Below are positions 8,873 through 18,719 of a DNA stretch of 49,088 bases, in pieces (the stretch's first letter is position 1; each line of letters starts with the position of its first letter). The notes under the pieces were generated by a model. The model was not told the origin of the DNA, made no database searches, and was given only the letters and a program-made list of their open reading frames with translations. The DNA is from Gemmatimonadales bacterium (lineage in GTDB: Bacteria; Gemmatimonadota; Gemmatimonadetes; Palauibacterales; Palauibacteraceae): assembly GCA_050114915.1 (NCBI GenBank), contig JASFRN010000004.1, positions 1 to 49,088 of the forward strand, written 5' to 3'. The position numbers were made by a program, and so were the translations under genes.

Positions 8873-10272
8873 CAGGTCGCGGCGCACCCGACGAATGGCG
8901 GCTGGAGGCCGCCGCGGCCGAAGCGGGAGACCGGCCCGCCCTCGTCGCGGCCGGGCGCACCTGGACCTGGCGCGAGCTCGCCGCGGACGCCGCCCGGGAG
9001 CGCGAGGCGCTGGCCGACGCCGGCGTCGTGCCCAGCGAGACGGCCATTCGGGCAACGCTCGACGCCCACCCGACCCCGGCGACGGTCATCCGGCTGCTCG
9101 CCCTGTTCGAGGCGGGTGTGTGCGCCGTTCCACTGCCGCCCGGCCTGCCGGAGGAGGCTCGTGCGGAGCGGCTGCGCGCCCTCGGCGCACACCTCGATCT
9201 CGAGACCGGGGTACGGGTGGACCCGGACCCGGCCGCCGGCTCTGGAGCCTGGCGTGCCCGGCCCTGCGGCGCCGGACGGCACCCGCTGGCGGTCCTCTTC
9301 ACCTCCGGGAGCTCGGGTACCCCGCGCGCCGTGGAGCTGTCGCGCGAAGCGTTCTCCGCATCGGCGGCCGCCTCCGCCCGCCACCTGGGCTGGCGTCCCG
9401 GCGATCGATGGCTCTGCTGCCTTCCCCTGTTTCACGTGGGCGGGCTGTCGATCGTCACGCGCTGCCTGCTCGGACGCCGGACGGTCGTGCTCGCGGACGG
9501 CTTCGACGCGGTTACGGTGGCCGCAATGGTGGAACGCGAATCCGTGAGCCTCGCCTCGTTCGTGCCGACGATGCTCCATCGCCTGTTCGAGCTGGAGCCG
9601 GAGTGGACACCTCCGGCGGGTCTGCGGGCCGTCCTCCTCGGCGGCGCCCCGGCTTCGGAGCAGCTGTGGAGGGAGATCGAGCGGCGCGGGCTCCGCGCGC
9701 TCTCCACGTACGGGATGACGGAGACATGCTCCCAGGTCGCCACGGGTACGCGAGACGCGCCCCGGCGACTGGTCCCGCTGGACGGAGTGCGGCTGCGCAT
9801 CCGCTCCGGACGGATCGAGGTGGCGGGACCGATGCTGGCGACGAGGGTCCGGGCGGGAGGCGACGAAGAGCCCTTCACCCCCGACGGCTACCTGCGGTGC
9901 GGCGATCTCGGCCGGATCGAAAGCGGGTCGCTCGAAGTGCTGGGCCGCTCCGACCGCACGATTCTAACGGGCGGCGAGAACGTGGCGCCCGCCGAAGTCG
10001 AGACGGTGCTCGAGCGGCATCCGGGCATCCGCCGTGCCGTGGTGTTCGGCGTCCCCGATGAAGAGTGGGGGCAGGTCGTGGGCGCCGCTCTCGAGCCCAC
10101 GGACGCACCCGTACCGGCCGAAGAGCTGCGCGACTGGCTGGCCGGCCGGCTGGCCGGCCACCAGCGCCCGCGTCGCGTCGCGTGGTTGACCGAGCTCCCA
10201 CTGACGCCGACCGGCAAGGTGGACCGCGCAGCAGCCGAACGAGCGGGCAGCGTTCGAGCGTCCGTCCTTTGA
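8866..10272 (+). CDS. menE: o-succinylbenzoate-CoA ligase
   Basis: FTSGSSGTPR, LPLFHVGG, TYGMTETCSQV, GDLG, GGENV.P.EVE, LPLTPTGKVDR; operon context. Confidence 0.88.
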   Translation: MVTGRGAPDEWRLEAAAAEAGDRPALVAAGRTWTWRELAADAAREREALADAGVVPSETAIRATLDAHPTPATVIRLLALFEAGVCAVPLPPGLPEEARAERLRALGAHLDLETGVRVDPDPAAGSGAWRARPCGAGRHPLAVLFTSGSSGTPRAVELSREAFSASAAASARHLGWRPGDRWLCCLPLFHVGGLSIVTRCLLGRRTVVLADGFDAVTVAAMVERESVSLASFVPTMLHRLFELEPEWTPPAGLRAVLLGGAPASEQLWREIERRGLRALSTYGMTETCSQVATGTRDAPRRLVPLDGVRLRIRSGRIEVAGPMLATRVRAGGDEEPFTPDGYLRCGDLGRIESGSLEVLGRSDRTILTGGENVAPAEVETVLERHPGIRRAVVFGVPDEEWGQVVGAALEPTDAPVPAEELRDWLAGRLAGHQRPRRVAWLTELPLTPTGKVDRAAAERAGSVRASVL

Positions 10273-10316
10273 CGGCCGGGACCGACCCGCTGCGACCGAA
10301 CCAGGGAGATGCAGGG

Positions 10317-10700
10317 ATGCTCAGCATGTCCACCGATCACTTCGAGGCCCTCGTCGCTCGCGCGCTACGTCTCCTGCCGCCCGAGTTCGAGGCGCACATG
10401 GACAACGTCAGCGTCGTCGTCCGGGAGTGGCCCACCCGCGAACTGTTGGCTTCGCTCGGCGTGGATCCGGACGACCCGGACGACACGCTGTTCGGTCTCT
10501 ACGAGGGCGTCCCGCTCACCGAGCGGCGGCACGACGACATGCTGCTGCCCGATCAGATCACGATCTTCCGGGGACCGTTGCTGGAGTTTTGCCGGGACGA
10601 GGAAGAGGTGGTCGAAGAAGTGCGGATCACGGTGCTGCACGAGATCGGCCACTTCTTCGGGATGGACGAGGATCGCCTCGACGAGCTCGGCTACGGTTGA
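10317..10700 (+). CDS. Zincin-like metallopeptidase family protein
   Basis: LFGLYEGVPL..R...LPDQITIFRGP, HEIGHFFG; start 10317 or 10326. Confidence 0.85.
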   Translation: MLSMSTDHFEALVARALRLLPPEFEAHMDNVSVVVREWPTRELLASLGVDPDDPDDTLFGLYEGVPLTERRHDDMLLPDQITIFRGPLLEFCRDEEEVVEEVRITVLHEIGHFFGMDEDRLDELGYG

Positions 10701-10726
10701 ACCGGCCGACCCGGCGTCCTGCCGGA

Positions 10727-10846
10727 GGCATGGGGGGTCTAAAAAAGAGACCCGCCCGACCGGACCTTCGCCCCCCCCGCATGCGGCTGCAAAGCAGCCA
10801 GGAACACGAAGACCACAGTACGGACGGGCTCTTTGGCTGTCCCGCC
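10727..10846 (-). ncRNA. Candidate structured small RNA (boundaries approximate)
   Basis: Directly downstream of a near-consensus leftward promoter; long-range pairing 10821-10834 with 10744-10758, central hairpin 10785-10799, U6 run near 3' end; G-U pairs favour the minus strand. Confidence 0.45.
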
Positions 10847-10852
10847 GACCGT

Positions 10853-10881
10853 ATGCTACCTCAGCCCGCCTCTATTGTCAA
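10853..10881 (-). promoter_or_regulatory. Leftward sigma70 promoter TTGACA-N17-TAGCAT
   Basis: Read directly: -35 at 10881-10876, -10 at 10858-10853. Confidence 0.7.
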
Positions 10882-10898
10882 GGTTGATACCCTAACAA
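10875..10898. promoter_or_regulatory. Candidate operator TTGTCAAGG-N6-CCCTAACAA
   Basis: Imperfect palindrome (7/9 right arm), same position and left arm as 17939-17962. Confidence 0.5.
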
Positions 10899-10909
10899 AC
10901 CTCGTGGGC

Positions 10910-10938
10910 TTGCCAAACCCGATCCTAACTGTCAGATT
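10910..10938 (+). promoter_or_regulatory. Rightward promoter TTGCCA-N14-TGT-CAGATT, probably leaderless
   Basis: 17-nt spacing with extended -10; ATG 10946 follows a 7-nt gap with no SD. Confidence 0.55.
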
Positions 10939-10945
10939 TTGTCCC

Positions 10946-11605
10946 ATGCCGTATACGAATCATGTTCGGATGCCCGGTCTCGGGGAGACTCAAAAAGCAC
11001 TTCTGCACAGCCTCAAGCGCCGTGGTCCCTCCACCACCGGCGAGCTCACCGAGGATTTCACGCTGGCGACCGGCACGGTCCGCGAGCACCTCAAGTCTCT
11101 CGAAGCCCGACGTCTCGTGGAACGCGTCGGTACCCGGCGCGAAGGTCCGGGACGACCTCACGTAATATACGGTCTGACGGAGGCGGGCGAAGCCCTGTTT
11201 CCGCGCGGCGAAGCCGAGCTGTTGACCGAGCTCGTCGAATTCCTGCTCGATGCCGACCAGGACGATCTCATCGACAGGTTCTTCGAGCAGCGCGCCGACA
11301 GGGCGGCGACGGAGGCCGCACGCCGCGTGGCGCGGATGACGGTCGAGCATCGCGCCGAGGAAGTCGTGCGCATTCTCGCCGACGCCGGGTTCATGCCGGA
11401 GCTCGGCACCGACGAAGAGACGGGCGACACGATCGTCAAGCTCTGCCATTGTCCCCTCAAGTCGGTGATAGCGGTGACGCGCCGCCCGTGCGCCGCCGAG
11501 GAACGTTTCGTCTCGCAGGTGCTCGGCGCCGAGCTCGAGCGGCTCACCTACATGCCCGATGGCGACGAGTGCTGCTCCTACCGGGTGCGTCCGCCCGGTC
11601 GTTGA
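10946..11605 (+). CDS. Winged-HTH transcriptional regulator, SufR/COG2345-like, Cys-rich C-terminus (copy 1)
   Basis: HTH (T.GTVREHLKSL...GRP...Y.LT..G), LCHCP-x11-C..E and GDECCSY; colinear with copy 2. Confidence 0.85.
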   Translation: MPYTNHVRMPGLGETQKALLHSLKRRGPSTTGELTEDFTLATGTVREHLKSLEARRLVERVGTRREGPGRPHVIYGLTEAGEALFPRGEAELLTELVEFLLDADQDDLIDRFFEQRADRAATEAARRVARMTVEHRAEEVVRILADAGFMPELGTDEETGDTIVKLCHCPLKSVIAVTRRPCAAEERFVSQVLGAELERLTYMPDGDECCSYRVRPPGR

Positions 11606-11633
11606 TCGGAGTCGAGTCGCGTTCCGCGCGCCG

Positions 11634-12422
11634 TCACAGATCCGCCCCGCGGAACCGCCAGGCGGCGATCAGGAGCGGTACGCAGATCCAGGTGAAGAGA
11701 GACCCCGCGGCGACCGCCGTGCCCGTCCCACCTCCGAAGAAGGCCCGGAATACCGCCCCGGTGTAGCCCATCAACGCCGCCTGGTCGAACTGCATGAGCA
11801 GCAGGATGCGCGCGGTGTCGATCGGATTCAGCAGGCTGGCGACCAGGGCCGGACCCTCGAGCACGGTCCCCGGAAGGGTCAGGGACACGGTCGCGAACAG
11901 GCCGTCGTACAACACGGTGAGCGCCAGCCAGGCGAGGATCGCGACGCCCATGCCGGCCGCGCGGTCACGAATCGTCACCGCGGTCAGGAACGCGAGCGCG
12001 AGGCTGCTCAACGTGAGCGCGCCGGTCACCGCGAGCAGACGCAGGATTCCGCTGCCGCCGCCGTGCGTCAGTGCGGCGACGACGAGCGGTGCCCCGAGGC
12101 CCAGCCACTCGACACCGACCAGGGGCAGGGCGACGCCGGCGAACAGTCCGCAGAACAGCTCGCGGCGGCCGACGGGCTGAGCGAGGAGCATGCGGTTGAA
12201 GTCCCGTGCGCCGTACAGGTAGAGCGTGCCGAACAGCAGTCCCACCAGCGGGGTGACGAGCAGCACCGGATTGACGAGGCCGGCGGCCGCGCGCGCCACG
12301 TCGCCTTCGAGCAGGATCAGCGCCTGTGCGAGCCCGAACAGAGCGGCGCCGTAGACGAGGATCCAGCGTCCGCGGGCCACGTCACGCAGTCCGTAGCGGG
12401 CGATGCGGGCGGCCGTCCTCAC
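11634..12422 (-). CDS. nosY: NosY ABC transporter permease
   Basis: Multi-TM; LLAQPVGR, LLNPID.ARIL, ALMGYTGAVF; follows nosF. Confidence 0.9.
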   Translation of the reverse strand: MRTAARIARYGLRDVARGRWILVYGAALFGLAQALILLEGDVARAAAGLVNPVLLVTPLVGLLFGTLYLYGARDFNRMLLAQPVGRRELFCGLFAGVALPLVGVEWLGLGAPLVVAALTHGGGSGILRLLAVTGALTLSSLALAFLTAVTIRDRAAGMGVAILAWLALTVLYDGLFATVSLTLPGTVLEGPALVASLLNPIDTARILLLMQFDQAALMGYTGAVFRAFFGGGTGTAVAAGSLFTWICVPLLIAAWRFRGADL

Positions 12423-13222
12423 GACGCCTCCACGGCCGCCGTCGGCGCGCCCCGCGACTGTCCGGCCTCCGCCTCGATCTCCATGAGGCAGGCCACCGCC
12501 CGCTCGAGGTCGTCGGTCTCCATCCTCCGTAGCAGCTCCTCGGTACTCCCGTCGAACCGTATCCGGCCGTCCACCAGGTAGACGAGGTGGTCGGCCAGGT
12601 CACGGAGCTCGCTCAGCACGTGCGACGTGATCAGCACGGTGGCGCCGCGCTCCCGTTCGGCCCGGATCAGGTCCTTGAGCCGCGAGCGGCCGAGCGGATC
12701 GAGACCCGCGGTCGGCTCGTCGAGAATCAACAGGTCGGCATCGTAGCGAAACGCGATTGCCGCGTTCACCTTCTGCCGCGTTCCGCCCGACAGGGTTCCG
12801 ACCGGCTTGTCCAGGGAGGGTTCGAGGCCGAACAGCGTGAGCAGCTCGCTCCGTGGGCGTCGGGTGAACGGCTCGTCGTCATCCGCGTCGGTCCCGGCGC
12901 CGCGCAGACCACGCAGCCCGTCGATGAACCGGAGAAGCTCGCGAACCCGAAGGTTGTCGGGGAACGCCGGCTGCTGCGGCATGTAGCCGATACGCTCGCG
13001 GTAGAGCGGGTCGCCGTTCACCACGACGCCGTCGAGCTCGATTCGGCCCGCGTCGGGCCGCAAGAGGCCGAGCACCGCCTTCACGAGCGTGGTCTTGCCG
13101 GCCGCGTTGGGGCCGACGAGCGCGGTGATCCGCCCGGTCGGGACTTCGACGTCGAGCCCCCGCAGGACCTCCAGCCGTCCGTACCGCTTGCGCAGCCCTT
13201 CGACGCGCAGCCGGGCGCTCAT
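12419..13222 (-). CDS. nosF: NosF ABC transporter ATPase
   Basis: Walker A GPNAAGKTT, LSGGTRQKV, LILDEPTAGLD; ATGA overlap with nosD. Confidence 0.9.
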   Translation of the reverse strand: MSARLRVEGLRKRYGRLEVLRGLDVEVPTGRITALVGPNAAGKTTLVKAVLGLLRPDAGRIELDGVVVNGDPLYRERIGYMPQQPAFPDNLRVRELLRFIDGLRGLRGAGTDADDDEPFTRRPRSELLTLFGLEPSLDKPVGTLSGGTRQKVNAAIAFRYDADLLILDEPTAGLDPLGRSRLKDLIRAERERGATVLITSHVLSELRDLADHLVYLVDGRIRFDGSTEELLRRMETDDLERAVACLMEIEAEAGQSRGAPTAAVEAS

Positions 13223-15219
13223 CGAACCGCTCCCGGGCTCCGCGGGTCGGCTACCGAGGCCATGGCGGGCGCCGGGTCGACGAGATTCTCGGGCGTCAGC
13301 GCCGGGATCAGCGCTTCCGTCCAGTCGAGGAAGCTGACGAAGAAGCTGCGCAGGAGGATCGTGGTCACCGGGGCGCGCTCGACGACGAGGGCGAACAGGC
13401 GCACCGGCCGGAACGGCACGTCACCCGTGCCGTCCCCGTCGAGGTCGTATCCCCGGTAGCGGTCCCAGTGGTTCCCCCGGAACGAGCTCCGCACGTGTCG
13501 ACCGTTCGTCGTCACGTCGAACGTGTTGGCCACGAAATCGTTCTGCCGGAAGCTCGACCTGGTGGAGTTCGAGAGCAGCCGAATCGCGCGGCCGTTCTCC
13601 CGGAACAGATTGCCGTCGACCGTCGTCCGGTCGAACCCTTCCGCGTAGAGGCCCACCGAGTTGGCGCGGAAGACGTTTCCGGTGATTCGGCTGTCCGTGA
13701 TGTCCTTCAACAGCAGCCCGTAGGACGAGCTGCCCTGGTTGTGCTCGAACCGGTTGCCGGCCATCGCGATGTCCGACGTGTACATCACGGCGACGCCGGC
13801 CACGTTGTCGGCGAAGATGTTTGCCTCGTAACGGCCGCCGTCGGAGAACATGAAGTGCAGCCCGTAGCGCAGGTTTCCGACGATCTGGTTGTGGGCGATG
13901 CGGCCGTCCTCGACGAACTCGAAGTAGATGCCGTCGCGATGGCCACTGACCCGGTTCGAGGTCACGACGACCCGCTTCGAGTACCAGCCGTGGATGCCGT
14001 TGCCCGAGTCGGTCTCCGACGTGCCCGTACCGGTGATGTCGTTCTCGATCACGCGGCAATCGGTAGTGCGGGCGAGGTAGATCGCGAAGAAGCCGCCGTG
14101 GATACGGTTGTGGTCGATCTCGCAGCGCTCGGCGTTCTCGACTCGCACGGCGGCCCGGTCCTCCAGGTAGCTCACTCCGACGTTGCGCAGGTCGAGGCCC
14201 GTGATCCGCACGTCGTCGGCCGTCACGGTGAACAGTTGCCGTTGCCCCTCGCCGTCGACGACCGGCCAGCCTTCGCCTTCGATCGTCAGCGGCCGGTCGA
14301 CGACGACCGTGGGTTCGCGGTACAGGCCCGGCCGGACCAGAATCCGGGCACCGGGCGCCGCCCGCCGCACGGCCTCGCCGATCGACGCGAGGGCGCCGCC
14401 CGGCTCGACGACGAGCCAGAGCGGTCGGTCATCGCTCCCGGCGTCCGGCGGAGACTCGAATCCGGCCGCATCCTCGCCCGCCCCCGGCGATGCCGGCCGC
14501 TCGTGGTCCATCGCGGCATGGTCGACCGTCCGTTCGGGCAGGTCACCGCAGCCCGCGGCGCCCGCCGAGAGCGTCGCGGCGAGGAGCAGGACGAGCGCGC
14601 CGCCCGCCCGTCCTCCCGCCGCGCCGCGTTTCGCCAGCCGGCGCTCGAGCCAGCAGCGCCAGCCGGCGAGGAGTCCGGCGGCGATCGCGATCCAGCCGCC
14701 GAGGGCCGGCAGCGACACCGCCGTGAAGTTCAGGAGCTTCTTCGAGCCGATCAGCGGCGGCTGGTACGTCATCCCGGGGACTTTGATGATCGCCCGCTCG
14801 GCGTCGAGGTTGTGGCCGTAGTCGTAGCCCCAGGCGTAGAAATCGGCGAGCCCGGCGACGGCGGCCAACGCCAGCAGGCCGAACCAGGTGCAGATCATCC
14901 ACCGGCGTCCCACCGCGGCGGCCAGCAGACCCCACCCGATCAGCCCGGCGAGGATCCACGGCATCCAGCTCAGCTCGCGAATCGAGTCGGGGTGGATCTC
15001 CTTCATCCCGATGTAGTGGTTCAGCCCATTGATGTTCTGCAGATCGTGCGGGTGGACGCCGTCGATCGTGTTGATCCGGATCAGCAGGCCGATCCCCTCG
15101 GGGAACTGCGGCGCGTCGAGGTTGATCTGCCACAGGGGCACGAAGTAGAGGAGCACCAGGGCGAGGGCCGCGGCGAGCACGATCAGGCGAGATGCGGGGC
15201 CGGCCGTTTTCGGTCTCAT
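13219..15219 (-). CDS. nosD: Fusion of NosB-like membrane protein and NosD maturation protein (666 aa)
   Basis: N-part: W.I.L.APQFPEG, NINGLNHYIGM, YDYGHNLD...IKVPGM.YQPPLIG.K.LLNF; C-part: beta-helix NosD (GNGIH.W, RDGIYFEF, RYGLHFMFS, GYDLDGDG.GDVPFRP); one open frame. Confidence 0.85.
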   Translation of the reverse strand: MRPKTAGPASRLIVLAAALALVLLYFVPLWQINLDAPQFPEGIGLLIRINTIDGVHPHDLQNINGLNHYIGMKEIHPDSIRELSWMPWILAGLIGWGLLAAAVGRRWMICTWFGLLALAAVAGLADFYAWGYDYGHNLDAERAIIKVPGMTYQPPLIGSKKLLNFTAVSLPALGGWIAIAAGLLAGWRCWLERRLAKRGAAGGRAGGALVLLLAATLSAGAAGCGDLPERTVDHAAMDHERPASPGAGEDAAGFESPPDAGSDDRPLWLVVEPGGALASIGEAVRRAAPGARILVRPGLYREPTVVVDRPLTIEGEGWPVVDGEGQRQLFTVTADDVRITGLDLRNVGVSYLEDRAAVRVENAERCEIDHNRIHGGFFAIYLARTTDCRVIENDITGTGTSETDSGNGIHGWYSKRVVVTSNRVSGHRDGIYFEFVEDGRIAHNQIVGNLRYGLHFMFSDGGRYEANIFADNVAGVAVMYTSDIAMAGNRFEHNQGSSSYGLLLKDITDSRITGNVFRANSVGLYAEGFDRTTVDGNLFRENGRAIRLLSNSTRSSFRQNDFVANTFDVTTNGRHVRSSFRGNHWDRYRGYDLDGDGTGDVPFRPVRLFALVVERAPVTTILLRSFFVSFLDWTEALIPALTPENLVDPAPAMASVADPRSPGAVR

Positions 15220-15284: not shown

Positions 15285-17240
15285 TCAGTCGCCCGTGCTG
15301 AAAGCGATCTGCGGGTTGCTGCCGCGCGGCGACACCCGGACGTAGCCCTGCATCTCCTGGTGGAGCGCCGAGCAGAAGTCGGTGCAGTAGAAGGGGAACA
15401 CGCCCTCGTACTGCGGCACCCAGCGCAGCGTCCGCGTCTCGCCCGGCATCACGAGGAGCTCGGCGTTGCGGGCGCCCATCACCGCGAAGCCGTGCGGGAC
15501 GTCCCATGCCTGCTCGAGGTTCGTCATGTGGAACAGCACCGTGTCGCCGACCATCACGCCCTCGATGTTGTCCGGCACGAAGTGGGTGCGGATCGCGGTC
15601 AGGTAGACGTGCACGGTCTTGCCGTCACGCTCGACCCGGGCCTCGTCCTCGCTGCGCGTGACGTAAGGATTCGTGTTCTCCTCGATCGGGTACATCTGCA
15701 CCTGCTTGTCCCTGATCAGGCTCGCCGGCAGGGCCTGCGCGTAGTGCGGCTCGCCCATGGTCGGGAAGTCGAGCAGCATGCGCATCTTGTCGCCCGAGAT
15801 GTCGATGAGCTGCGCGGCGTGCGCGAGCTCGGGGCCGGTCGGCAGGTAGCGGTCCTTCGTGATCTTGTTGAGCGCCACCAGGTACTGGCCCCACGGCTTC
15901 TGCGAGTCGCCGCCCGGGATCATCAGGTGTCCGATCGAATAGTAGACCGGCATCCGGTCGAGGACCTCCCAGGTGCCCAGCTTCCACTTCACGACCTCGG
16001 AGGAGATGAACATCGAGGTGTAGGCGTTGCCGCGGCCGTCGAACTCGGTGTGCAGCGGGCCGAGCCCGGGGTCCTGCACCTCGCCGGCCACCACGGCCTC
16101 GTAGTTGAGCACCGGGATGCCGTCGATGACGGTGTCGAACTGCTCGTTCGCGATCGCGTCGAGCATCTTCGAGAACGAGTGCACGGGAATCACGGTGGCG
16201 AGCTTGCCCCCCGCGACGATGTACTCGCCGGTCGGATCGACGTCGACGCCGTGCGGCGACTTGGGCGTCGGCAGGAAGTAGACCATGCCCTCGCAGTCGG
16301 CCGGGATCAGCACCCGCACGTCCTGCTCCATCTCGTGGTGGGCGATCCGGTTCTCGTCCAGGTGGTTGTGGGCGTAGCGGGCCTGCCGCAGCTCGCCGGC
16401 CCCGTCGGCCACGCACTCCTCCGCCCGCTGCCAGTTGACGGCGGCCACGAAGTCCTTGTCGTTCTGCGAGGCCTGGATCTCGAGCAGCGAATTGGCCTGT
16501 TCGGTGTTGTAGCTGGTCAGGAAGGCCCAGCCGTACGACGGGCCCTTCCCGGAGTGCGAGAGATCGTAGTTGTAGCCCGGCACCTCGATCTGGAACGCGA
16601 TGTCCATGTCACCCGGCTGGTCGGCGCGGATGAACGAGATCGTGCCGTCGAAGTTCTCCTTGTAGGTGTCGATCGACACGTCCGCCTGCGGAATCGGCAC
16701 GCTGAACCGCGTCGAGGCGACCAGGTATTTCGAGTCGGGCGTGATGAACGGGGACGCGTGGTTTCCGGCCGAGTTCGGGATTTCGAGAATCTCCTCGGTC
16801 TCGAACGTGGACAGGTCGATTCGCGCCACGCGCGGCGTGTTGTTGCCGTTGATGAACAGCCAGCGGCCGTCGGGCACGCCGTCGGTCTGAGAGAGCTCGG
16901 GGTGGTGGGCGTCGTCCCACGGGATGAAACCGAAGCTCGTCTGCAGCATGTCCTTCGTTTCCTCGGTGAAGCCCCAGCCGTTCTCGGGGAACTGCGAGAA
17001 CACGGGCACCGTCTTGATGAGCCGGCCCGACGGCAGGCCGTGAACGGTCACGTTCCCGCTGAAGCCGCCCGACATGAAGGCGTAATACTGGTCGTACTCG
17101 CCCGGGGGCACGTACACCTCCGACGCGGCGTCTCCGGCGCCCGCCGCCGGCCCGCCGCCGGACTGGCAGGCGTAGGTGAACGTCCCGGCGAACGCGGTTG
17201 CCGCGGCCAGCAGCACGATTCGGCGTCCTGTGATCTTCAT
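15285..17240 (-). CDS. nosZ: Sec-dependent (clade II) nitrous-oxide reductase
   Basis: CuZ His motifs WDDAHHP, GNHASP, PKSPHG, GPLH, IGHL, EPHY; CuA PHGF...YCTDFCSALHQEM; Sec/lipoprotein-type signal (TYAC); no C-terminal heme domain. Confidence 0.97.
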   Translation of the reverse strand: MKITGRRIVLLAAATAFAGTFTYACQSGGGPAAGAGDAASEVYVPPGEYDQYYAFMSGGFSGNVTVHGLPSGRLIKTVPVFSQFPENGWGFTEETKDMLQTSFGFIPWDDAHHPELSQTDGVPDGRWLFINGNNTPRVARIDLSTFETEEILEIPNSAGNHASPFITPDSKYLVASTRFSVPIPQADVSIDTYKENFDGTISFIRADQPGDMDIAFQIEVPGYNYDLSHSGKGPSYGWAFLTSYNTEQANSLLEIQASQNDKDFVAAVNWQRAEECVADGAGELRQARYAHNHLDENRIAHHEMEQDVRVLIPADCEGMVYFLPTPKSPHGVDVDPTGEYIVAGGKLATVIPVHSFSKMLDAIANEQFDTVIDGIPVLNYEAVVAGEVQDPGLGPLHTEFDGRGNAYTSMFISSEVVKWKLGTWEVLDRMPVYYSIGHLMIPGGDSQKPWGQYLVALNKITKDRYLPTGPELAHAAQLIDISGDKMRMLLDFPTMGEPHYAQALPASLIRDKQVQMYPIEENTNPYVTRSEDEARVERDGKTVHVYLTAIRTHFVPDNIEGVMVGDTVLFHMTNLEQAWDVPHGFAVMGARNAELLVMPGETRTLRWVPQYEGVFPFYCTDFCSALHQEMQGYVRVSPRGSNPQIAFSTGD

Positions 17241-17843: not shown

Positions 17844-17916
17844 GCGATGGACCTCGCTGTATCTGGTTCACGGAGCCTGCCTGCCGACGAGCCCCGTATC
17901 CGGTCTGATGGGCCCG

Positions 17917-17945
17917 ATTCTACACCCGGGGTCGAGAATTGTCAA
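17917..17945 (-). promoter_or_regulatory. nos operon promoter TTGACA-N17-TAGAAT
   Basis: -35 at 17945-17940, -10 at 17922-17917. Confidence 0.78.
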
Positions 17946-17962
17946 GGATGTTTCCTTCATAA
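17939..17962. promoter_or_regulatory. Candidate operator TTGTCAAGG-N6-CCTTCATAA
   Basis: Imperfect palindrome overlapping the nos -35; equivalent to 10875-10898. Confidence 0.5.
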
Positions 17963-17973
17963 CCACTTAAACC

Positions 17974-18002
17974 TTGACAATAGGGCACGGTCGTGGCAGA
18001 GT
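17974..18002 (+). promoter_or_regulatory. Rightward promoter TTGACA-N14-TGG-CAGAGT, probably leaderless
   Basis: 17-nt spacing, extended -10; ATG 18009 follows a 6-nt gap with no SD. Confidence 0.6.
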
Positions 18003-18008
18003 GCTGCC

Positions 18009-18719
18009 ATGCGCGAAGCAGGTGAAGTGCGGATACCGGGGCTCGGCGACACCCAGCGGCAGCTGTTGCTCCTGCTCAAGCGGCGGGGTCCGTCGACGAC
18101 CGCGGAGCTCGCCGACGAGTGCCACCTGGCGCAGGGGACGCTTCGTGAGCACCTGTACTCGCTGGACGCACGGGGCCTGATCGAACGGGCCGGATCGCGC
18201 CGGCAGGGGCCGGGCCGACCCCGGGTCGTCTACCGCCTGAGCGACGTGGGTGAGAGCCTGTTCCCGAGCAACGAGGCGGAGCTCCTGGCGGCTTTCGTGC
18301 AGCACTTGCTCGCCACGGGGCGGGCCGAGCTGGTCGACCGGTTCTTCGAACAGCGCTCCGAGCTGGCCTATGCCGAGGCGGCGCCCGCCCTCGAAGGGGT
18401 GCCCGTCGAGGAACGCGAGCGAGAAGCGGTCCGGGTGCTCAAGGCGGCCGGGTTCATGCCCGAGTTGCTTCGCGACGAGGCCACGGGGGAGATGATCCTG
18501 CAGCTGTGCAACTGCCCGCTCAAGTCGGTGATCGCCATCACCCGGCGGCCCTGCGCGGCCGAGGAGAAGCTGGTGGCTCAGCTGGTGGATGCACGGATCG
18601 AGCGCTTCGCCTACATGCCCGAGGGGGACGACAGTTGCTCGTATCGCATCCGGCGCGCGCCCGCGGCGGAGGAGGATGACGCGCAGGGCGACGGACCGAC
18701 CGGCCAGCGGGGGAACTGA
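18009..18719 (+). CDS. Winged-HTH transcriptional regulator, SufR/COG2345-like (copy 2)
   Basis: C-terminal part of track ORF 15192..18719; LCNCP-x11-C..E, GDDSCSY; 126/219 identities with copy 1 by hand count. Confidence 0.85.
   Translation: MREAGEVRIPGLGDTQRQLLLLLKRRGPSTTAELADECHLAQGTLREHLYSLDARGLIERAGSRRQGPGRPRVVYRLSDVGESLFPSNEAELLAAFVQHLLATGRAELVDRFFEQRSELAYAEAAPALEGVPVEEREREAVRVLKAAGFMPELLRDEATGEMILQLCNCPLKSVIAITRRPCAAEEKLVAQLVDARIERFAYMPEGDDSCSYRIRRAPAAEEDDAQGDGPTGQRGN

Follow-up and report, generated by a model that had tools for sequence, protein, structure and literature searches.

The 49,088-nt stretch of DNA analysed here (the window; GenBank assembly GCA_050114915.1, contig JASFRN010000004.1, from a Gemmatimonadales bacterium) carries a nos cluster for N2O reduction, at the edge of which a short minus-strand unit lies between two plus-strand genes. 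Converging on this unit is the gene for a Zincin_1 metallopeptidase (plus strand, 10317-10700; PF06262, E 6.8e-31), preceded on the same strand by a menC-like gene and an AMP-binding (menE-like) gene; diverging from it is the gene for regulator 2, a SufR-like protein with a winged helix-turn-helix (wHTH) domain and a Cys-rich C-terminus (plus strand, 10946-11605; TIGR02702, E 2.5e-18; HTH_5). The unit itself consists of a promoter, a predicted non-coding transcript of ~105 nt (minus strand, 10846-10741; inferred from promoter, fold and U-run) and a terminator-like 3′ end. An original prediction, made from the letters alone, had taken it for an orphan promoter driving a small RNA (sRNA) under redox control, analogous to FnrS. 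Homology instead shows that the unit is no orphan: it derives from a second copy of nosC — our name for the lipoprotein cytochrome c gene upstream of nosZ — of which only a truncated 5′ end that can no longer be translated remains. We put at about 0.58 the probability that this 5′ end was exapted and that selection maintains it as a non-coding RNA unit which is linked to a regulator and terminates its own transcription.

The promoter comprises a −35 hexamer TTGACA (minus strand, 10881-10876) and, 17 nt away, a −10 hexamer TAGCAT (minus strand, 10858-10853), both supported by a promoter scan and by syntenic copies. It agrees with the sigma-70-type consensus at 10 of 12 positions, has sigma-70-type spacing and was the sole promoter-like site within 9500-12500, where shuffled sequences led us to expect 0.1. 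Transcription starting at 10846, as the promoter predicts, would yield a 12-nt 5′ tail, GGCGGGACAGCC (10846-10835), which begins 6-7 variable nt past the −10 hexamer in all four window-type copies. The tail is followed by a rod-like hairpin of ~40 pairs, many of them G-U (minus strand, 10834-10744), recovered in both the minimum free energy (MFE) fold and a consensus structure.

Folding the minus-strand RNA from 10846 to 10735 reproduced the rod as originally described: AAAGAGCCCGUCCG pairs with CGGGCGGG(U)CUCUUU in the outer stem, followed by ACUG with CGGU and then GGUCUUCG with CGAAGGUC, up to an apical GGCUGC-UUU-GCAGCC hairpin (10799-10785). The heptamer GCAUGCG (10784-10778), which corresponds to the Ala-Cys-Gly codons of a former lipobox, was unpaired in the MFE fold as an internal loop. 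A G8 run lies within the rod and a U6 run (10746-10741) directly after it; together with the stem, which ends in CUCUUUUUU, this run has the form of an intrinsic (Rho-independent) terminator, and termination is predicted there. The MFE was −59.8 kcal/mol (z = −3.65), and none of 200 shuffles was as stable. The argument that G-U pairs on the minus strand, which become A-C on the plus strand, betray the transcribed strand also held: the plus strand of the same stretch reached only −41.5 kcal/mol (z = −2.4), and the asymmetry recurred in two homologues (−62.5 versus −40.3 and −57.8 versus −37.7 kcal/mol), giving the sense strand an advantage of 18-22 kcal/mol in the window and its homologues. The stretch is single-copy in the genome, and a Logan contig, an independent assembly of the probable source run, showed 0 differences over 9800-12278, so that an assembly artefact is excluded.

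When 40 relatives were searched at the DNA level, the origin of the unit became clear. Positions 10761-10834 were matched in six of seven same-genus genomes, and in five of these six (G001, G002, G003, G004 and G006) the match corresponded to codons ~7-40 of an intact nosC; two weak matches of 31-39 nt elsewhere (L008, L009) were dropped, as the hairpin was not seen there. In these relatives nosC encodes a lipoprotein cytochrome c of 175-190 amino acids (MQT...LAASAAACGGGEGPP...CSACHK), with nosZ directly after it and a SufR-like regulator gene divergent from it. The relic, as we call the truncated copy, aligned base for base with intact nosC from AAAGAGCCCG to the U-run, except that the window copy lacks 1 nt of the apical loop and has 1 extra nt after GGTCCG; its apical loop is accordingly one base shorter than those of intact genes (TTCG/TGCG), and this loss is among the frame-breaking indels. 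The Shine-Dalgarno site, the 5′ untranslated region (UTR) and everything past codon ~40, including the haem domain, are gone from the window copy, which has no in-frame start codon downstream of the TAG in its −10 hexamer. Homology stops at the U-run, with the zincin stop 41 nt on; no CxxCH cytochrome c domain remains, and in no copy does a cytochrome domain follow the relic.

The promoter, too, has its counterpart in nosC. All eight intact genes examined, including the one resident in the window, carry CCTTGACAA-N17/18-TAxxxT 38-80 nt before the ATG, back to back with a regulator promoter. From the −10 hexamer to the hairpin base the relics span only 17-18 nt (18 nt in the window), a short gap which indicates that UTR, Shine-Dalgarno site and ATG were lost. 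The original description of the promoter as a positional twin of the nos promoter was thus apt: both read CCTTGACAAT-N-TAGxAT, and both diverge from a SufR-like regulator gene. We considered and dropped the idea that the −10 hexamer was born from the old start-codon region, given that intact genes carry TTGACA-N17-TAxxxT further upstream.

A second candidate, a residual cytochrome domain antisense to zincin (minus-strand 10500-10670 against NosC residues 100-150, 30 bits), was likewise rejected. The codon-aligned similarity looked collinear in the window and recurs weakly in G002 and G003, where no relic adjoins zincin; we judged it to be chance because it is absent from L041 and L042 and because zincin's own family (PF06262) dictates its sequence. 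The antisense frame of the zincin C-terminus thus provides an example of homology mimicry in 70% GC DNA.

A pattern scan of metagenome contigs returned seven stretches, comprising three further relics (L038, L041 and L042), three intact genes and one unrelated chance match (L044), which was dropped along with L040, a duplicate of L037. All three relic contigs share the window's layout — nosD-nosF-nosY, regulator 2, relic, zincin, menE — and L041 also holds the OmpA-like gene, regulator 1, a resident nosC and nosZ, with 97% protein identity of NosZ to that of the window. The possibility raised at the outset that relatives might carry a protein gene at this position was therefore borne out only as homology to nosC: the syntenic contigs have the non-coding unit and no gene. 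The description of a stand-alone minus-strand promoter, rod RNA and U-run that is not a protein gene was supported.

Conservation across these four copies was sharply uneven. Regulator 2 proteins were 81-85% identical between the window and the syntenic contigs, and identity at four-fold degenerate sites was 0.46-0.52 in regulator 2 (106, 106 and 33 sites) and 0.43-0.50 in zincin (28 and 30 sites), placing neutral sites, as far as these counts indicate, near saturation. The predicted RNA was nevertheless identical at 95-96 of 106 positions (90-91%) between the window and L038, L041 and L042, and a 23-nt segment, GGCGGGACAGCCAAAGAGCCCGT, was invariant in all four. The −35 hexamer was TTGACA throughout, and the −10 hexamer, TAGCAT in the window and TAGTAT in the other three, always lay 17 nt from it, whereas only 6-7 of the 17 spacer positions agreed with the window and the 6-7 nt between the −10 hexamer and GGCGGG differed throughout. 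Retention of hexamers and RNA amid a scrambled spacer and near-saturated four-fold sites shows purifying selection on both, is the strongest argument that the unit is more than a chance feature, and speaks against its decay; the scrambled filler excludes recent exchange of the whole segment.

The 3′ ends followed a pattern of their own. Relic T runs were T6 in the window, T7 in L038 and L041, T3CT3 in L042 and T5CT3 in the relic of a congener (G005); in the seven intact nosC genes the T run directly after the hairpin was at most T3. The zincin stop abuts the U-run in L038, L041 and L042 and lies 41 nt away in the window. Diverged copies of the zincin end plus relic, matching window 10638-10868 and carrying small indels inside the former open reading frame (ORF), occur in contigs of two other metagenome runs (wetland, mangrove); in one of these hardly any sequence separates the zincin stop from the U-run, an arrangement shared with L038, L041 and L042.

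We then asked how far the structure itself is conserved. The rod was predicted for all three syntenic relics (L038, L041 and L042; −57.8 to −62.5 kcal/mol, z −3.6 to −4.1), for the relic of G005 (−57.8 kcal/mol, z −5.4) and, among intact nosC genes of the genus, for each of the five that were folded (−55 to −62.5 kcal/mol, z −2.5 to −5.9). The 5′ region of the resident nosC in the window had no rod; at −38.6 kcal/mol (z +1.6) it folded no better than shuffles. An alignment of 12 distinct sequences — the four window-type relics, the G005 relic and seven intact genes — gave an RNAalifold consensus of 29 pairs, and 97.7% of its 348 cells were paired, compared with 45-57% when the 3′ partners were slid. 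Double changes occurred in seven pairs, compared with one or two after sliding, and the covariation score was reached by none of 500 shuffles. At pair 43-88 the window alone has U-A and the other 11 sequences C-G, and the GCAUGCG loop did not vary in any of the 12. When synonymous codons of this region were permuted in the intact genes, a control that preserves composition, the fold weakened, which sets the native hairpins apart (z −2.6 to −4.8; native energy reached by 0-2 of 300 permutations).

A covariance model built from this alignment found one strong match each in seven of eight genomes of the genus, and no strong match in the 106 genomes that represented 19 further genera of the family (two weak partial matches outside the genus, L054 and L055, were left out). 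The unit is the single strong match of the window genome. With filters off, no second match appeared in the window or the relic contigs save a 14.7-bit vestige, in the resident nosC of L041; the resident nosC of the window gave no match at E<=1. By this model the unit is present in one copy per genome and confined to the genus.

In the intact nosC genes of relatives (L032-L039, L043), the same analysis exposes a conserved, covarying hairpin of ~90 nt inside the coding region at codons ~7-40. It starts ~18 nt past the ATG, pairs signal-peptide codons with the Gly/Pro codons after the lipobox, and is followed by a pyrimidine-rich tract, making it a candidate translation-coupled attenuator of nosC-nosZ.

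What the relic does with this inheritance can be read in several ways. Insulation would be its minimal function and is the main rival to an RNA-based role: hairpin and U-run would act as a (possibly bidirectional) terminator that blocks the ex-nosC promoter from reading antisense into zincin-menE and perhaps ends the zincin operon too, with the promoter entangled in the operator and promoter of regulator 2 and the RNA itself functionless. The abutment of the U-run to the zincin stop in L038, L041 and L042 (41 nt away in the window), the A-tract and U-tract that flank the hairpin and so offer a stem in both directions, and the U-runs of both relic types, which exceed those of the seven intact genes, all fit this account, as do the weaker hexamers of the G005 relic (TTGATA/TATCTT), which has no adjoining regulator and looks as expected for decay of an unconstrained promoter. 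A terminator, however, needs neither the 12-nt 5′ tail nor the fixed-spacing −10 hexamer, which are (near-)invariant amid scrambled bases; in the zincin sense the stem is far weaker (−38 to −41 kcal/mol) and is followed merely by CUCUUUGG; and promoter loss, the cheapest cure for harmful antisense transcription, is not seen in any of the four lineages. Insulation as the sole function is thus a tenable but clearly less probable account. That the unit is demonstrably a gene fragment, in a genus that has repeatedly lost the nos island (the G005 relic stands alone, and G007 has nothing between the OmpA-like gene and zincin), might instead suggest an inert leftover: a recently truncated nosC pseudogene fragment, with a promoter and a chance terminator, not yet decayed. 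Yet the relic is old, with neutral sites at 0.43-0.52 while its RNA is 90-97% identical and its hexamers are kept, and its base pairs are held by compensatory changes; recent segment exchange among contigs would revive the idea, but the scrambled spacers argue against it, and we regard inertness as improbable.

Coding and artefactual explanations fared worse. The 25-codon GTG ORF (minus strand, 10816-10739) that had been offered as a weaker alternative does exist, and the sequence once coded for a signal peptide and lipobox, so that a small protein or a residual signal peptide or lipoprotein could be imagined. It has neither a Shine-Dalgarno site nor an ATG, however, and a 1-nt indel inside the ORF relative to L038, L041 and L042 makes the downstream peptides unrelated; further indels occur in the metagenome variants, and in other copies the frame continues without a stop into zincin antisense. 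We rejected the ORF on the strength of these frame-shifting indels, and a protein product is very improbable. A real nosC broken by homopolymer errors, or misjoined contigs, might be suspected in a 197-contig metagenome-assembled genome with G8 and T6 runs in the stretch itself, but the independent assembly is identical over 9800-12278, the same junctions recur in three contigs and in the metagenome variants, and no copy has a cytochrome domain after the relic, leaving this account scarcely credible.

Several observations weigh against our preferred reading, that the nosC 5′ end was exapted as a non-coding RNA unit. Just four syntenic copies are known, three of them close together (96-97% in the RNA), and the consensus structure was derived from the same sequences that were then used for the pair counts. 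When codons were resampled by the GC-rich codon usage of the window, the hairpins of intact genes were not distinct (z +0.4 to −1.4), a control that is probably confounded by raised GC content. Conservation of the promoter could come in part from constraint on the regulator 2 operator and divergent promoter, and that of the hairpin from a mere terminator role for two convergent units. The transcription start, the 3′ end and the very existence of the RNA are all predicted; a search of sequencing runs for 10300-11700 listed no RNA run that contains the stretch. Hfq (PF17209) was not found in the genome (G000, 90.8% complete), although control genomes gave matches. The target search suggested by the original prediction gave no convincing target either: complements of the 18-nt 5′ end in the genome were 11-13-mers with no credible start-site context; of the three 13-mers, one falls within a pseudo-ORF of 13 codons, one close to where a gene ends and one at the close of a haem-copper-oxidase-like ORF.

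What favours exaptation is the set of features kept from nosC: a promoter beside that of a SufR-like regulator, a ~90-nt rod, and a U-run longer than that of any intact gene. In silico, its own promoter, its terminator and the frame-breaking indels among homologues mark it as an independent non-coding transcription unit, from which a small non-coding RNA is probably still made. RNA polymerase would start at ~10846 from a promoter whose architecture is regulator-controlled, as in the nos operon, transcribe ~105 nt, and stop at the unit's own hairpin and U6 before reaching the convergent zincin gene; the product would be a hairpin RNA that is stable and not translated, and its synthesis would follow nos induction. 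We infer transcription and termination of the unit, its control by the neighbouring Cys-rich SufR-like regulator 2, and selection for the RNA itself and not for the act of terminating alone; the invariant 5′ tail and the −10 hexamer argue that the product matters.

A bolder extension, which we consider unlikely, would turn a cis element into a trans regulator. Every nosC examined, the rod-less resident gene among them, has CGCAUGC, the complement of the GCAUGCG loop, at its start codon, although this heptamer occurs 510 times in the genome. The conserved start-codon context of nosC is itself palindromic, (G)GGTCT-ACGCATGC-AGACC (window 17846-17835; also L032-L043 and L041), forming a small start-site hairpin that shows the AUG in a loop with the self-complementary GCAUGC. 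In ancestral nosC mRNA the rod loop could have kissed the start-codon loop (GGUCU-ACGCAUGC-AGACC), and hairpin formation and read-through would thereby have been coupled to the start of translation. The resident nosC of the window lineage is without a rod but has kept CGCAUGC (17846-17835), and the rod would be a separate RNA driven by regulator 2; the relic RNA might then bind in trans to the start site of the resident nosC, or titrate a rod-recognising factor. If so, a second Fe-S-type sensor would gain post-transcriptional control of nosC-nosZ, and hence of N2O reduction.

FnrS and similar RNAs are anaerobically induced, base-pairing sRNAs. The unit resembles them as a stand-alone intergenic element of ~100 nt with its own sigma-70-type promoter and a predicted intrinsic terminator, and a switch by a redox or Fe-S-type transcription factor is plausible. 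It differs from them in several respects: inspection by eye of the promoter alignment (four copies) revealed no FNR-box-like TTGAT-N4-ATCAA, the genome search yielded no Hfq gene, and nearly the whole relic RNA is locked in one long rod, with no long single-stranded seed. It is also without sequence kinship to a known family: comparison with Rfam 15, which the original prediction had proposed, gave no match at gathering thresholds in the whole window and none at E<=10 in 10500-11100. With no FNR box visible, and neither an Hfq gene nor a convincing target found, the label of an FnrS-like redox sRNA remains an analogy.

Other parallels lie among RNAs derived from attenuators or 5′ UTRs, such as rnTrpL of Sinorhizobium (PMC6614838) and Rli51 of Listeria (PMC11394854). 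As with those RNAs, the relic RNA corresponds to an mRNA 5′ part ended by a hairpin terminator, but no downstream gene remains here, the next gene is convergent, and the unit does not qualify as an attenuator-derived sRNA of the rnTrpL type. Deletion of the parent gene would instead have turned the "attenuator" into a constitutive terminator and left the unit free-standing. The enterobacterial SesR2 and EcsR1 offer a precedent for sRNA genes made by genome rearrangement (PMC4350180): there, as here, rearrangement or deletion makes a new intergenic region with a lineage-specific small transcription unit that is then conserved, although the SesR2 promoter is described as having arisen de novo by point mutation (PMC4350180). 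The relic inherited promoter, regulator gene and RNA structure ready-made from a protein-coding operon, and the U-run alone was apparently improved.

A final comparison is with bidirectional intrinsic terminators between convergent genes (bioRxiv 10.1101/2022.10.23.513370). Like them, the unit has a GC-rich stem with an A-tract on one side and a U-tract on the other, placed between convergent units at one stop codon, but it departs from them in its ~40-pair stem, its many strand-specific G-U pairs, its ~20 kcal/mol weaker fold on the other strand, and its dedicated, conserved promoter just 12 nt upstream.

To our knowledge, few bacterial small-RNA genes have a traceable birth. In the present case the path can be read from the sequence, as a deletion leftover that lost its translation signals, gained a better terminator and then came under purifying selection. 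Gemmatimonadota genomes commonly carry nosZ; if expressed, the unit would be, as far as general literature searches show, this phylum's first candidate for a regulatory RNA associated with a clade II nos cluster, and would point to an unstudied layer of N2O-reduction control by SufR-like, Cys-rich regulators.

The origin of the unit can be set within the history of the nos island, which, on present comparisons, is variable within the genus between the OmpA-like gene and zincin, being present, partial or absent among congeners. G006 has OmpA, the regulator and nosC...nosY, then zincin directly (L058); G003 has three glycosylation genes between nosY and zincin (L045/L030); G005 has the relic alone, TTGATA-N17-TATCTT plus rod plus T5CT3, without regulator or nos genes (L046/L007); and G007 has nothing between the OmpA-like gene and zincin (L056). 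This pattern of presence and absence indicates that N2O-reduction genes have been lost repeatedly from one fixed site in the chromosome. With identities of 88-91% to the intact genes of G001, G004 and G006 but only 68-75% to the window-type relics, the G005 relic looks like a separate, younger truncation, and its closeness to another set of intact genes suggests that the unit of promoter, rod and U-run may have been formed twice, in independent events. Both relic types have lost the segment with UTR, Shine-Dalgarno site and ATG, and both have U-runs longer than in the seven intact genes. The window type would be explained most simply by a tandem duplication of the regulator-nos unit followed by a deletion from codon ~40 of the second nosC copy to the zincin stop.

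The remaining nos genes of the window, assigned from Pfam matches and ORFs, lie on the minus strand beyond regulator 2: nosY (11634-12422), nosF (12419-13222), a fusion of a membrane domain with nosD (about 13219-15210) and nosZ (15285-17240). NosD carries an N-terminal membrane domain of ~300 amino acids (MRPKTAGPASRLIVL...), a fusion also found in G003 (L045 1025-3010) and L041; the nosD ORF is listed to 15507, and the longer start, which overlaps the nosZ end, is probably not real. Upstream of nosZ lies the resident, intact nosC, encoding a lipoprotein cytochrome c of 187 amino acids (minus strand, 17843-17280; Cytochrom_C, E 2e-13). It is divergent from regulator 1, a SufR-like paralogue identified by homology (plus strand, 18009-18719), past which lies the OmpA-like gene.

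The two paralogous SufR-like regulators, each with a wHTH domain and a C-terminal CxC...C...CC/SC motif, thus flank the nos cluster. Regulator 2 has as its best family match cyanobacterial SufR (TIGR02702), well below the model cutoff, and shares 73% identity with the regulators linked to nos in G003 and G002, and 59% with regulator 1. Its promoter, TTGCCA-N17-CAGATT (plus strand, 10910-10938), ends 7 nt before the ATG, and in L038, L041 and L042 its hexamers are kept while the spacer varies. In both regulator genes the −10 hexamer ends 6-7 nt before the ATG, so near that leaderless mRNAs are suggested for regulators 1 and 2.

Every regulator-nosC intergenic region (17905-18015, 10865-10950 and L032-L043) contains a back-to-back pair of sigma-70-like promoters in which the two −35 regions make up an inverted repeat. 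In the resident region (minus strand, 17917-17981), with TTGACA (17945-17940) and TAGAAT (17922-17917) separated by N17, this repeat is perfect, ATTGTCAAGG/CCTTGACAAT, its arms lying 24 nt apart (17938-17981). The repeat is likely the operator of the SufR-like regulators, and the TTGnCAAG...CTTGACAA repeats in the two promoter regions provide candidate operators of regulators 1 and 2. Between the window and L041, identity is 69% for regulator 1, 82% for regulator 2 and 97% for NosZ, and the first two values indicate that the regulator beside the working operon evolves faster.

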